DNA of 64,000 nt from Bacteroidota bacterium (GTDB taxonomy: Bacteria; Bacteroidota; Bacteroidia; Palsa-965): the NCBI GenBank assembly GCA_013289095.1, contig JABDAO010000002.1, positions 2,673 through 66,672 of the forward strand, read 5' to 3'. Under the pieces are notes generated by a model. It saw only the letters and a program-made list of their open reading frames with translations. It was not told the origin of the DNA and searched no databases. The translations under genes and the position numbers were made by a program. Shown here one piece after another: positions 13,711 through 63,871 of the stretch; the stretch's first letter is position 1, and each line of letters opens with the position of its first letter.

Positions 13711-13930
13711 TCTGAACCTGTAACCGGGCAACTTGACACAGGTAACGGGAAACTTGCGCGGGCGACCGGAAAACTTGCGCGGGCAACCGGAAATCTTGCG
13801 CGGGCAACCGGAAATCTTGCGCGGGCGACCGGAAATCTTGCGCGGGCAACCGGAAATCTTGCGCGGGCGACCGGAAAACTTGCGCGGGTGACCGGAAATC
13901 TTGCGCGGGCGACCGGAAATCTTGCGCGGG
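13711..13930. repeat. 21-bp tandem array #1 (unit CTTGCGCGGGCRACCGGAAAW)
   Basis: CTTGCGCGGG recurs 9 times at exact 21-nt spacing (13753 to 13921), with two degenerate units upstream. Confidence 0.95.
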
Positions 13931-32751: not shown

Positions 32752-32856
32752 GTGTATTTACGAAGGAGAAGAGTGTATTTACGAAGGGAAAATGTGTATT
32801 TACGAAGGAGAAGAGTGTATTGATGAGGAAGAAGAGTGGACTATGTAGAGGAGAGG
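32752..32856. repeat. 21-bp tandem array #2 (unit GTGTATTTACGAAGGAGAAGA), short and degenerate
   Basis: Units start at 32752, 32773, 32794 and 32815, with a degenerate unit at 32836. Confidence 0.8.
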
Positions 32857-59302: not shown

Positions 59303-59419
59303 TGCATTAGCGCACAAGCCATCTAATGCATAATCTGGGTTTAGGCGATGTTCCTGTTCACGTTCATAAGTCGGTTAATTAGTTGCCTTCCCACCCCTTC
59401 CCAAACGATCCCTATTCAG

Positions 59420-59451: not shown

Positions 59452-62145
59452 ATGAAACTCAAAATCGGAATCATCTTCGGGGGCCAGTCCAGGGAGCGCG
59501 AAATATCATTTGCCGGGGGACGGACCGTTTATGATAACCTGAATAAAGCGCTCTTCGAAGCGGTCCCGTTGTTTGTCGACAGCTTTGGAAATTTTCTCCT
59601 TCTCAACTGGGAATATATTTACAAAGGCAGCATCCGCGATTTTTATCCTCCTGCTGAAACCCTCCCCCCAGACAATGATGATTTTCAGCTCTATGCCGAA
59701 AGTCTGGGTCCTGCTTCGGCCGAGCAACAACATCGTCTGGCTGCCCGGCTCGGGAAACGAATACCGGTTTCAGAGCTCAGCAAGCACATCGATTTTGCAT
59801 TCCTGTGCCTCCATGGGGCCTTTGGGGAAGACGGTCGTATCCAGGGTCTGTTTGAATATTTTCATATCCCGTATTCGGGTTCAGGGATCCTTCCATCAGC
59901 CATTGGCATGGATAAAGCCGTGCAAAAACGTTTGATGACAGGGGCCGGCTTTAATAGTCCCCCTTTTCTTTCTTTTCACCGCAGGGAGTGGGATGCCGGC
60001 CATGAACAACATTTTTTTGAGAGGGCGTCAGCTCAGATCGGTTTCCCGTTGGTGGTGAAAGCAGCTCATCAGGGATCCTCCATCGGCATCAGCATCCTTC
60101 CTGATTCAGACTTCCAGGCTTTTTGTGGAGCGGTTGACCGAAGCTTTTTTATCCGACGTATTCAACCGGCTGAATGGAATCGACTCAACCACGACCAGAA
60201 AACAGATTTCATCCGGGTGCTTTGCGATATCCGCGAAGGAATAGGCATCCCCGTTAAAGCCGGGGCCCGGGTGTTTTATCTCCCGGCCGATTTGCTGACC
60301 TTTGTGAATGGATATTTCAGTAATCCCGAAACATCCGGACAGATTCTTACACTCGAATCGTTGGATGGTGAAAGCCAGGTGCTACTCGAAGGCTTTATCA
60401 GCGGACGTGAATTTTCATGCATCGTCCTGCAGGATGAGGCGGGCAGGCCCATTGCATTGCCCCCTACCGAGATCAGGAAAGGAAAGGAATTGTTCGATTA
60501 TCGTTCAAAATACCTGCCAGGTCTGAGCCGGAAGATTACCCCGATCGATTTGCCGGATACACAAATACAAGAAATCCGCGAACAATGCGAAACGCTTTTC
60601 GCCGCCCTTGAATTCGACGTTTATGCCCGTATCGACGGGTTTATCACAGCCGAAGGAAAGGTGTTTTTAAACGACCCGAACACCACCTCGGGCATGATGC
60701 CCTCCAGTTTCTTTTTTCACCAGGCTGCCGAAATCGGGTTGAACCCCTCGCAGTTCATCACCTACATTATCCGTACTTCGCTAAACTCCCGGATTCAGGC
60801 TTCGATGAACAGCGGAAGGTATGACGAGCTTCTTAAAAATCTGGAGGATGCCCTTTTAAAAGAAAAGACAGCGGGGGCCAGTAAGACCCGTATTGCTGTC
60901 TTGTTCGGAGGCTATTCATCCGAAAGACATATTTCAGTCGAGAGCGGCAGAAATGTCTATGAAAAACTTTCCTCTTCTGATAAATACGCCCCAATTCCCG
61001 TATTCCTTACCGGTAACGACAAAGAACATATCCTCTATGAGGTTCCTGTAAACTTGCTTCTGAAAGACAACGCCGATGATATTCGGGAAAAGGCCGAACA
61101 TTACCTCGTTCATCCGGTAGTCAAAGAGATCATCCGGCGTTGCTCCTTCATCACCGAAAAATACGCTCCCTCCTCGCGATTGCTGGAACCCCGCAGAATC
61201 ACATACGATGAACTAGGAACCTTGGCTGATGGTGTTTTTATTGCCCTGCATGGACGCCCGGGAGAGGATGGGGCCGTCCAGGAAAAACTGGAACAGATTG
61301 GCCTGGCCTATAATGGCTCTGATAAAGGAAGTTCAGAAATCACAATCGATAAATACCGCACCAACGAGATCCTGCTCAAGCACGGTCTGCTCGTTGCCGA
61401 GCACCTGTTGGTTACCAGGGCCGACTGGGATCAGCATGCTGATAGCGTAAAGAAACATATCCTGGAAAAGATCGGCCTTCCCTTTATTGCCAAACCTGTT
61501 GATGACGGTTGTAGCTCTGCCGTTAAAAAAATCAAGACTTTTGAAGAGCTGGATGCATTTGCCGCGTTGATTTTTCGGCTTTCTCCAAACCTCGATCCGG
61601 TTTCATCCGATGTATTGCATATCAAACCCAAGGAAGAATTTCCCATAAAACCTCTCTTCCTGGTCGAAGAACTGATTTCAAAACGCGATGCATTGCACTT
61701 TTTGGAAATAACCGGTGGAATGCTCACCCGGATGAACGACGAGGGTGAACTGGTTTACGAAGTGTTCGAAGCCAGTGAGGCCCTGAGCGAGGGTGAAGTC
61801 TTATCGCTCGAGGAGAAATTTCTGGCCGGGCAGGGCCAGAACATTACACCTGCCAGGTATTCAACGGATAAGACGATTCAGCAAAAGATCTCTGCCCATG
61901 TCAAATCCGAGTTGGGCAAGGCCGCCAGGTTCCTGGGGGTGACGGGTTATTGCCGCATTGATGCGTTTGTAAGAATTTACGAAAAAGGCAGGGCCGAAGT
62001 GATCTTCATTGAAGTCAATTCCCTGCCGGGGATGACACCCGCCACCTGCATCTTCCATCAAGCAGCCATTGATCAGCTCAAACCCTACGAGTTTATTGAT
62101 AAAATCCTTGATTTTGGGTTTAGAAAGAATTCACTTCACGCTTAA
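59452..62145 (+). CDS. ddl: D-alanine--D-alanine ligase with two tandem ligase modules
   Basis: Module 1: IFGGQSREREIS, LHGAFGEDG, DYRSKY, RIDGF. Module 2: LFGGYSSERHIS, LHGRPGEDG, RIDAF, EVNSLPGMT. Confidence 0.9.
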   Translation: MKLKIGIIFGGQSREREISFAGGRTVYDNLNKALFEAVPLFVDSFGNFLLLNWEYIYKGSIRDFYPPAETLPPDNDDFQLYAESLGPASAEQQHRLAARLGKRIPVSELSKHIDFAFLCLHGAFGEDGRIQGLFEYFHIPYSGSGILPSAIGMDKAVQKRLMTGAGFNSPPFLSFHRREWDAGHEQHFFERASAQIGFPLVVKAAHQGSSIGISILPDSDFQAFCGAVDRSFFIRRIQPAEWNRLNHDQKTDFIRVLCDIREGIGIPVKAGARVFYLPADLLTFVNGYFSNPETSGQILTLESLDGESQVLLEGFISGREFSCIVLQDEAGRPIALPPTEIRKGKELFDYRSKYLPGLSRKITPIDLPDTQIQEIREQCETLFAALEFDVYARIDGFITAEGKVFLNDPNTTSGMMPSSFFFHQAAEIGLNPSQFITYIIRTSLNSRIQASMNSGRYDELLKNLEDALLKEKTAGASKTRIAVLFGGYSSERHISVESGRNVYEKLSSSDKYAPIPVFLTGNDKEHILYEVPVNLLLKDNADDIREKAEHYLVHPVVKEIIRRCSFITEKYAPSSRLLEPRRITYDELGTLADGVFIALHGRPGEDGAVQEKLEQIGLAYNGSDKGSSEITIDKYRTNEILLKHGLLVAEHLLVTRADWDQHADSVKKHILEKIGLPFIAKPVDDGCSSAVKKIKTFEELDAFAALIFRLSPNLDPVSSDVLHIKPKEEFPIKPLFLVEELISKRDALHFLEITGGMLTRMNDEGELVYEVFEASEALSEGEVLSLEEKFLAGQGQNITPARYSTDKTIQQKISAHVKSELGKAARFLGVTGYCRIDAFVRIYEKGRAEVIFIEVNSLPGMTPATCIFHQAAIDQLKPYEFIDKILDFGFRKNSLHA

Positions 62146-62297
62146 TATTCGAAATCTTTCGTTCAGCTGAAAGGAATGGCCTTCTTCTTCGTCCCAAAGT
62201 TGTCAGTATAGCCGTTGGCATTCCTGTTGGGTTAGAGGGCGTTGATGAATCGGCTGTTTCTGCTCATTCTTCTACTGTCAAAACGTTCCCTCCCAAA

Positions 62298-62962
62298 GAT
62301 CTCTGTTTAAGCTTACCCACTGCTTGCCCGGGATTCCGGATGCCGTTGCTTAAGATCCCTGCCTGTTCCCCAGGGTTTTCGACATGTTCCCCAGAGTTCC
62401 CGACATGTTCCCCAAGCTTCCCGGCATGTTCCCCAAGCTTCCCTACATGTTTACTAAGCTTCCCGACATGTTTGCTAAGGTTCCCGACATGTTTACTAAG
62501 CTTCCCGACATGTTCCCCAAGCTTCCCGACATGTTTGCTAAGCTTCCCGACACGTTTACTAAGCTTCCCGACACGTTTACTAAACTTCCCGACATGTTCC
62601 CCAAGCTTCCCGACATGTTTACTAAGCTTCCCGACACATTTACTAAGCTTCCCGACATGTTTGCTAAGCTTCCCGACATGTTTACTAAGCTTCCCGACAC
62701 GTTTACTAAGCTTCCCGACATGTTCCCCAAGCTTCCCGACATGTTTGCTAAGCTTCCCGACATGTTTCCCAAGCTTCCCGACACGTTTACTAAGCTTCCC
62801 GACATGTTCCCCGAGGTTCCCGATATGTTCCCCAAGGTTCCCGACATGTTCCCTGAGGTTATCGACACGTTCCCCAAGGTTCCCGACATGTTCCCCAAGC
62901 TTCCCGACATGTTCCCCAAGGTTCCCGACATGTTTACTAAGCTTCCCGACATGTTCCCCAAG
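62298..62962. repeat. 21-bp tandem array #3 (unit AAGCTTCCCGACATGTTCCCC and variants)
   Basis: 27.5 well-conserved units (62384-62962) plus about 4 degenerate units on the left. No spacers. Confidence 0.97.
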
Positions 62963-63046
62963 CCTTGGCTACCCGAAGCCTTTGATTGGATTATTCAAAC
63001 AGACCCGATAGATCCTGACTGAAGTTTAGTAAATTTGAATCCGTAT

Positions 63047-63871
63047 ATGAAAAACGTGTTCGCCTTCCTGAAGAGTCGTATGTTTTTGAGACACCTGGGT
63101 GTTGCATTACTTGCATTGATTGCGGTGTTCTGGCTTGTTTTCGAAGGTCTTGACATCTATACCCGGCATGGCAAAACAGTAACCGTTCCAAGCTTTAATA
63201 ACCTTAAAGTCAGAGATTTGACCAGCTTTATCCATGGCAAACAACTAAAATATCTGGTAATCGATTCAATTTTTGATACTAAAAGAGACAAAGGCATCGT
63301 TATCAAACAGGAACCCGAGGCCGGATCGAAGGTAAAACCCGAACGGACCATCTATTTATACGTAACTTCGGTGATGCCTCCGCGTATAGCCATGCCGAGG
63401 CTGGAAGACAGATCGCTTCGTCAGGCCGTTGCTCTGCTCGAAACATACGGTTTGAAACTTGCCAAACCGGTGAAACGAAAACCCGATGTCTGTAACGGAT
63501 GCGTGCTGAGCCAGGAATACAAAGGCAAACGCATTGCCGAAGGGGCTATGATCGAGCGTGGTTCTGAAATTGTCCTCACCATCGGCGAAGGGCGCGAAGG
63601 AGGAGGCAGTGTCGGGATCCCGAATCTGATCGGTCTTACACGCCGGCAAGCGGTTCAAAGGCTGAATGAAAACAATTTATCTGAAGGAGCCATGATTTTT
63701 GATAAAAAGACCAAGGAAAAACAGGATACCGCTGCTGCTGTTGTTTACAGACAGAACCCCGCAGCAGGCGAGGATCATCTGATCAGCCCGGGCAGCAGTA
63801 TTGATTGTTACCTCACAACTGATAAAACCAGGTTGCACACAACATCTGATACAACCAATCAACATCCGTGA
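63047..63871 (+). CDS. PASTA-domain protein (membrane anchor plus three PASTA repeats)
   Basis: N-terminal TM helix, YTRHGKTVTVP, KQEPEAGSKVK, MPRLEDRSLRQA, IPNLIGLTRRQA, QNP. Confidence 0.9.
   Translation: MKNVFAFLKSRMFLRHLGVALLALIAVFWLVFEGLDIYTRHGKTVTVPSFNNLKVRDLTSFIHGKQLKYLVIDSIFDTKRDKGIVIKQEPEAGSKVKPERTIYLYVTSVMPPRIAMPRLEDRSLRQAVALLETYGLKLAKPVKRKPDVCNGCVLSQEYKGKRIAEGAMIERGSEIVLTIGEGREGGGSVGIPNLIGLTRRQAVQRLNENNLSEGAMIFDKKTKEKQDTAAAVVYRQNPAAGEDHLISPGSSIDCYLTTDKTRLHTTSDTTNQHP

Follow-up and report, generated by a model that had tools for sequence, protein, structure and literature searches.

The question raised by this locus is what fills the space between two neighboring genes of a Bacteroidota bacterium, where the gene for a D-Ala-D-Ala ligase (ddl) and the downstream gene for a PASTA-domain protein are separated by 901 bp (ddl stop at 62145, PASTA ATG at 63047), compared to 25–63 bp in six of seven related genomes. 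The locus is situated on contig JABDAO010000002.1 of the metagenome-assembled genome (MAG) GCA_013289095.1, which comprises 2.95 Mb in 167 contigs and is 62% complete. All coordinates given without a contig designation are positions of the window, i.e., the whole stretch of 64,000 nucleotides that was analyzed, while positions elsewhere are preceded by a designation such as C4. A preliminary description of the window had recognized a large array of about 28 units of 21 bp between the two genes, regarded it as an insertion into the ddl-PASTA operon, and implied that it conceals a frame on the minus strand coding for heptad repeats. As set out below, the array is probably a non-coding minisatellite which was inserted or left behind in the ddl-PASTA spacer and belongs to a species-specific repeat family that is mostly borne by a transposable element of the miniature inverted-repeat kind (MITE). 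The enlarged gap would then represent inserted selfish or neutral repeat DNA.

Structure of the 21-bp Array

Tandem Repeats Finder (TRF) reported a 21-bp array at 62380–62963 with 27.8 copies, 86% matches, and 0% indels, which together with an in-register scoring of the units bears out the number of repeats given in the preliminary description. The scoring also extended the array by three decayed units at its left side, in which 10–12 of 18 consensus positions match in register, compared to 3–7 further left. In total, the array is made up of 28 good and three decayed units (62317–62967), and its right edge is sharp near 62964–62967. In the unit, CGACAYGTTYNCYNAGNTTCC, 16 bp form a conserved core and the other 5 bp a variable stretch, and the variation over 382 units of the genome is concentrated at the unit positions 6, 10, 11, 13, 14, and 17. 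The two palindromic hexamers that had been noticed in most units are present in 19 (AAGCTT) and 20 copies (ACATGT) across the 28 units and alternate at distances of 11/10 bp.

RNA corresponding to the plus strand of the array folds far better than shuffled sequences (z = −4.9), owing to pairing between palindromes located in different units; this folding may favor slippage or affect a read-through transcript. A link of the palindromes to restriction-modification is not indicated by the word frequencies, and an avoidance of restriction sites was rejected on the basis of the observed/expected ratios outside the arrays, which are 0.96 for AAGCTT and 0.93 for ACATGT. No Rfam family was detected between 61900 and 63200 at E ≤ 1, and consensus scans of the locus for sigma-70 promoters and terminators gave no match. 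The Bacteroidetes promoter pattern TTTG-N17-23-TAnnTTTG was likewise absent from the locus, and its counts in the window were at chance level.

Insertion Between ddl and the PASTA Gene

The view of the array as an insertion between ddl and the PASTA gene is supported by the comparison with the relatives, which combine a short spacer with a unit-free genome: a pattern search found the unit neither in 40 relatives nor in 34 other genomes of the order, and metagenome contigs of JGI did not contain any match to the unit pattern or to a 23-mer of the right junction. Because the relatives share both the short spacer and a TAnnTTTG motif in front of the PASTA gene, about 0.82–0.84 kb appear to have been added upstream of this motif, which is retained in front of the PASTA gene downstream of the insertion. 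In one congener (L018, contig C53, 1–1500), a gene for a 418-aa protein, which we take by eye to be glycosyltransferase-like, occupies the place of ddl upstream of the PASTA gene, so the junction is prone to rearrangement in the genus. Direct or inverted repeats of at least 8 bp pairing the two flanks of the window array were not found.

Both junctions of the array are real, because the independent Logan assembly of SRR8422484 reproduces them base for base. On the ddl side, a Logan contig extends through the left flank and reaches 4.5 units into the array, and a separate one leads from the last half-unit via the right flank into the PASTA gene, each of them being identical to the window. The gene caller applied to the Logan contigs placed a partial minus-strand "gene" of 69 aa at a contig end (L107 2964–3173), which is the tail of the heptad frame treated below, and this spurious call shows how such arrays seed false protein entries.

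A Dispersed Repeat Family and Its Mobile Element

The unit pattern has 304–367 matches in the genome, depending on the pattern used, while the reversed control has 0. The family comprises at least 18 arrays with 382 units and a total length of 8 kb, with up to 30 units per locus and five arrays located at contig ends. The 15 arrays that do not directly adjoin a contig end are all intergenic, with long open reading frames (ORFs) on either side, and the genes around them are co-directional, divergent, or convergent. Relative to co-directional neighbors, the arrays show the same orientation in five cases and the opposite one in three. The longest exact stretch shared by the window array and any other array measures 83 bp, and the order of the unit variants differs from array to array.

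At least 11 of the arrays lie inside a MITE of approximately 0.9–1.2 kb and share its tail of about 105 bp, and a leader of about 410 bp is common to five complete copies. A sixth copy (C1:63617–64480) contains the leader end together with a different inner module. The element ends in 12-bp terminal inverted repeats (GGGTCAAYGTCA) and is flanked by exact 8-bp target duplications in C4 (ATAATTTG), in C36 (ATTTTTTT), and at C1:63617–64480 (TTGAGTGT); imperfect duplications were found at C1:28861 (7/8) and in C6 (6/8), and no duplication at the copy in C59. The element carrying the minisatellite inside is a genuine MITE. Its tail closes 19 elements, some of them with other arrays as cargo, and its leader yields 46 matches in the genome, mostly to the inner part, and no match in five congeners. 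Not all arrays are embedded in this way, as those in C5, C8, and C11 share flanks of another kind and four arrays, including that of the window, have flanks of their own. The sole candidate pair of matching inverted ends that was found lies in C80 with a distance of 2.3 kb; it was rejected as an autonomous partner, since the ORF enclosed by it corresponds to an apparently lipoprotein-like product of 489 aa and no long ORF of transposase size lies beside it.

The MITE occurs in further variants, such as a short one of about 360 bp (C47:1931–2294), which runs from leader to tail and contains a different small repeat. A homopolymeric C/G run in the tail consists of 5, 6, 7, 8, or 9 bases (e.g., C2:339–420, C44:80–150, C48:1118–1190). 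The inner part of the leader, of about 130–160 bp, is an abundant dispersed repeat in its own right and often adjoins 21-bp arrays (e.g., C8:22316–22477, C64:16402–16540); it is apparently rich in hairpins by eye and was not found in the congeners. A further array of this unit, oppositely oriented and joined to the MITE tail, is located 2.4 kb upstream of the window start (C2:2–316), and the contig that contains the window starts within it.

Open Reading Frames over the Array

Four of the six reading frames are open in the window copy, and the preliminary description gave an accurate account of the heptad frame on the minus strand as far as its sequence is concerned. This frame runs over 234 codons from 62968 to a TGA at 62264–62266, is directly preceded by a TAG at the array edge, and does not contain any ATG, GTG, or TTG before codon 216, the only other candidate being ATC at codons 48, 204, and 209. 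It reads as heptads of the type VGK/N-L-S/G/R-K/E-H/R, which continue in register as decayed heptads. As also described before, a variant at 62443 (CGAC to CTAC) is synonymous in the heptad frame (GTC to GTA, both Val) and creates a stop codon in the MSGSLVN frame, and the plus-strand PTCSPSF frame shares its wobble positions with the heptad frame, the third codon positions being unit positions 2, 5, 8, 11, 14, 17, and 20.

The long open frames are explained by the unit itself, because it is exactly seven codons long and its variable positions are unable to form stop codons in these frames. With a unit of 21 nt, a frame that is free of stops in the unit remains open throughout the array. A column-wise shuffle of the 382 units predicts 0.0 stops for the VGKLSKH frame and 0.3 for the PTCSPSF frame, and the openness of both frames in all arrays is therefore uninformative. 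A random single substitution would introduce a stop codon into the heptad frame in just 2.8% of cases, and about 2.8 stops are expected from the approximately 100 unit-level occurrences of rare variants; none was seen, which is not a significant difference. In the plus-strand MFPKLPD frame, a T at unit position 14 leads to a TAG in 48 of the 382 units, with 44 stops seen genome-wide, and this ORF is probably a by-product as well. The conserved ATG of the PTCSPSF frame in the MITE copies is lost in C6 (ATA plus TGA) and in C163 (ACG). Throughout the genome, the frames open over 21-bp arrays extend by a median of about 20 codons past the array, and seven of 87 arrays with a period of 21 bp or a multiple do not contain any open frame at all.

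Alternative Explanations

The VGKLSKH frame may be regarded as coding, either at present or in the past, for a His/Lys/Gly-rich heptad protein resembling a coiled coil, which would be translated from a non-canonical start or represent a start-less recombining cassette, but we consider this highly improbable. The frame is open in 18 of 18 arrays, a 3-bp deletion in C11 is in frame, the loss of the plus-strand ATG in C6 and C163 involves changes that are either conservative or synonymous in it, and Pfam families of coiled coils match by composition, no other Pfam matches being obtained. However, apart from the TAG at the array edge, a start codon is missing not only here but also in C11, C19, and C20, and the adjoining MITE modules interrupt the frame, C4 with a stop codon and C51 with stops plus a frameshift in a related 42-bp module, with the poly-C run of the tail varying from 5 to 9 bases. 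In the window, the frame is antisense to both ddl and the PASTA gene, and the 62% of the genome that is assembled did not reveal an expression locus. When the heptad frame was searched against 5.8 billion proteins, no convincing homolog but one marginal match was retrieved, a 173-aa protein of the coiled-coil type (E 1e-4), and the absence of stops is what the column composition predicts. The coding-like features of the frame are real but weak, and there is no support for the frame as a gene. The concealed coding frame implied by the preliminary description is thus not upheld, and the observations rather point to a dispersed, mostly MITE-borne intergenic family. It also appears very unlikely that the MFPKLPD frame is translated between the two cistrons of a ddl-PASTA transcript, in the manner described for the mycobacterial interspersed repetitive units (MIRUs) of operons. 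This ORF is co-directional with both neighbors, offers an ATG in most units, is not interrupted anywhere in this copy, and terminates 24 nt short of the PASTA ATG, with no terminator-like site in the spacer; MIRUs are described as transcribed polycistronically and as carrying ORFs (PMC3184786). Against this, the TAG-containing units cut the frame down to 118–146 codons in other arrays, the start 238 nt past the ddl stop does not allow an overlap of start and stop codons of the MIRU kind, no Pfam match of note was obtained, and the arrays occur in both orientations relative to the genes.

A role of the array as a DNA element, either as a series of protein-binding sites phased at one per two helical turns, with the palindromes on every other turn, or as a structure-forming insulator or attenuator tuning PASTA expression, would agree with the correspondence of 21 bp to two helical turns of 10.5 bp, with the division of the unit into core and variable stretch, with the alternating palindromes and the RNA folding described above, and with the promoter activity of segments of BrickBuilt, a repeat family of Porphyromonas gingivalis (PMC4596501). 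It is nevertheless quite unlikely, because a 10/11-bp sub-period is not general across the approximately 30 array families of the genome, the excess of palindromes is modest (13 families vs. 8.8 in shuffles, with a maximum of 16), copies exist in every gene context and orientation, and the array itself does not contain any match to sigma-70 or Bacteroidetes-type promoters. Moreover, the congeners lack the unit, and therefore no conserved host function depends on it. Finally, the array may be an artefact of the assembly, in which a repeat was collapsed, or wrongly joined to ddl and the PASTA gene, as the preliminary description had already considered. This would be in line with the fragmentation of the MAG into 167 contigs and the position of five of the 18 arrays at contig ends, but it is extremely improbable in view of the two Logan contigs, which reproduce the decayed left units as well as the unique right flank, of the gene order shared with the relatives, and of the order of unit variants particular to each array. 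The concern is removed for both junctions and persists for the interior of the array, inside which the Logan contigs break.

Several observations weigh against the array being a non-coding, MITE-derived minisatellite. A cognate transposase was not found in the assembled 62% of the genome. The window copy has neither leader, tail, inverted repeats, nor target duplication, and transposition is therefore not demonstrated for this locus; in addition, about 140 bp of the left spacer have no assigned origin. As the array interior is not spanned by the Logan contigs, its copy number is that of one assembly. The distribution of variable sites is also coding-like, since three of the six hypervariable positions (11, 14, and 17) are shared wobble positions, position 14 varies freely in a fully degenerate codon that stays Leu, and only polar residues vary between the Val and Leu residues that are invariant at the a/d positions of a coiled coil. 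According to a rough estimate, a hydrophobic pattern restricted to a/d arises in one of the four open frames of a random heptad with a chance of about 0.3, and it is not unusual that, of six variable sites, three share one codon phase.

Proposed Origin and Consequences of the Array

If the array is a non-coding minisatellite, as we favor, the MITE would depend for its mobility on a transposase provided in trans, and the arrays would grow, shrink, and homogenize by slipped-strand mispairing or unequal recombination. Owing to the palindromic hexamers, single strands can form ladder-like hairpins, and these may facilitate such changes. The window copy lacks both leader and tail and is regarded as a "solo" array of the family, not as a complete MITE. 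Expression of the PASTA gene has probably been left largely intact, because the array sits upstream of the conserved TAnnTTTG motif. With respect to annotation, the three or four long ORFs over the array should not be called genes, and arrays of this kind also break short-read assemblies, as illustrated by the five arrays at contig ends.

Comparison With Known Intergenic Repeats

BrickBuilt from P. gingivalis has a unit of 23 nt and occupies 19 loci, which are always intergenic; small inverted repeats form the ends of its leader and tail, and the variable sites are clustered on one side of the unit (Klein et al., 2015; PMC4596501). Three of the 19 loci possess neither leader nor tail, and others contain the leader only or the tail only (PMC4596501). 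The present family shares with BrickBuilt the occurrence in Bacteroidota, the spacer-less tandem arrangement of a unit of about 20 nt (with up to about 23 copies in BrickBuilt), the dispersed and strictly intergenic loci, the leader and tail with inverted repeats, the concentration of variable sites in one half of the unit, and a host range limited to one species, and the window copy corresponds to the BrickBuilt loci without leader or tail. At the level of the family, it matches the BrickBuilt kind in every structural feature tested, and it provides a second well-delimited case of a minisatellite-carrying MITE in Bacteroidota. Unlike BrickBuilt, the family has a unit of 21 instead of 23 nt, which accounts for the long open frames found here, two palindromic hexamers per unit, clear 8-bp target duplications, and the same MITE ends around several different and unrelated arrays.

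Iterons of plasmids and centromere-like arrays also consist of direct repeats spaced by about two helical turns, but these are few in number and present at a single locus next to rep or par genes. The family described here differs from them by its at least 18 chromosomal loci, its up to 30 units per array, and the lack of rep or par genes nearby. In Streptococcus pneumoniae, the BOX elements represent dispersed intergenic repeats that are non-coding and built from modules, with conserved ends and variable internal tandem modules, of which the internal boxB is present in few copies. The arrangement of conserved end modules around a variable number of internal tandem modules is common to both families, while the 8-bp target duplications set the present one apart, as BOX elements are not known to have transposon-type target duplications of 8 bp. 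BOX elements are also named in a review that covers MIRUs (PMC3184786).

According to that review, MIRUs are tandem units inserted between the genes of operons and absent from the homologous site of relatives (Supply et al., 1997; PMC3184786). The intercistronic position and the ORFs co-directional with the neighboring genes are shared with the window array, whereas the MIRU units are 40–100 bp long, occur in few copies per locus, and contain ORFs overlapping the flanking stop and start codons. The plus-strand ORF in the window keeps the distances to ddl and the PASTA gene given above, and the arrays of the present family adopt either orientation.

Conservation of the 21-bp Period

A TRF analysis of the whole genome revealed that, of 103 strong arrays, 87 (28 kb) have a period of 21, 42, 63, 84, or 126 bp, the other 16 showing different periods. 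These 87 arrays represent about 30 unit families which are mostly unrelated, the similarity of their consensus sequences being near that of shuffled ones (21 related pairs vs. 6.7 expected at a threshold of ≥13/21). A common ancestry of all 21-bp families, as judged from consensus similarity, was rejected, since the excess of related pairs is only small, and no general rule of a 10/11-bp sub-period or of palindromes was found across the families. Some of the 21-bp families are carried by the same MITE ends. Two congeners that were sampled exhibit the same bias toward 21 bp with other unit sequences, and samples of two genomes from other genera of the family show no such bias.

If this period lock stemmed from common descent alone, a complete turnover of the sequences should also have yielded some families of 20, 22, or 24 bp, of which almost none are seen. 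Candidates for setting the length would then be a DNA-protein ruler of two helical turns, a property of the mobilizing enzyme, or low-level translation of heptad peptides. The idea that the array family is the largest of a set of genus-specific, period-locked satellites, with a length-setting mechanism or selection at work, is a doubtful one at present. Even so graded, the period lock is the sole part of the finding with real potential for novelty, and the question of wider interest is why nearly all minisatellites of the genus keep a step of 21 bp.

Two further arrays of the 21-bp type are present in the window at 13748–13930 and 32752–32838. In C27, a very long ORF (C27:22159–28538), which has no stop over more than 2,800 codons around one of the arrays, carries tandem arrays whose periods are multiples of nine (45, 63, 72, 81, 108, and 180), suggesting collagen-like Gly-X-Y triplets. 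This is one of only two ORFs of more than 1,000 codons which contain such an array.

Genes and Spacers of the Locus

The features of the locus and three representative MITE copies are listed in Table 1. The left spacer has no second copy in the genome (blastn with word size 9 at E ≤ 1); judged from a weak similarity to the relatives, its first approximately 30 bp may be native ddl-PASTA spacer, and the remainder is probably part of the inserted DNA. At the other side of the array, the last approximately 50 bp of the right spacer, together with the TAnnTTTG motif, resemble the native spacer of the relatives. The corresponding position upstream of the PASTA gene is occupied by TAAATTTG, TAGCTTTG, or TATATTTG in the relatives L015/L019, L016/L017, and L021. 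From general knowledge of Bacteroidetes promoters, we take TAAATTTG to be a putative promoter element; a TTTG at the canonical −33 distance from it was not found.

Table 1. Features of the ddl-PASTA locus and copies of the associated MITE. Coordinates are positions of the window unless a contig is indicated.
Feature	Position	Strand	Remarks
Double-module D-Ala-D-Ala ligase gene (ddl), upstream neighbor	59452–62145	+	Pfam Dala_Dala_lig_N and Dala_Dala_lig_C, two matches each
Left spacer	62146–62316		Single-copy in the genome, no 21-bp periodicity
Start-less 234-codon VGKLSKH frame with stop	62264–62968	−	Read as a by-product of the 7-codon unit, not as a gene
Three decayed 21-bp units, older left edge	62317–62379		In-register scoring
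223-codon ORF with PTCSPSF repeats	62340–63011	+	Antisense partner of the heptad frame with the same wobble positions
Core minisatellite, 28 units of CGACAYGTTYNCYNAGNTTCC	62380–62967		TRF, unit table, column frequencies
212-codon ORF with MFPKLPD repeats	62384–63022	+	Most units (those containing ACATGT) provide an ATG; same direction as both flanking genes
Right spacer	62968–63029		Unique in the genome
TAAATTTG, match to the Bacteroidetes −7 promoter motif TAnnTTTG	63030–63037	+	Situated 9 nt ahead of the PASTA start codon
PASTA-domain gene (274 aa), downstream neighbor	63047–63871	+	Pfam PASTA, three stretches, E 2e-26
MITE copies	C4:17995–18927; C36:6608–7620; C1:63617–64480		12-bp ends GGGTCAAYGTCA, 8-bp target duplications

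The PASTA protein has orthologs with 61–71% identity in the congeners. The ddl product comprises 897 aa if translated from the ATG at 59452 or 920 aa from a TTG at 59383, and the independent gene call on the Logan contig corresponds to the form of 897 aa. At least four relatives (L015, L021, L022, and L023) likewise possess either a long ORF for ddl or, upstream, an additional match to Ddl that is weaker, and the fusion of two ddl modules appears to be conserved in the family.

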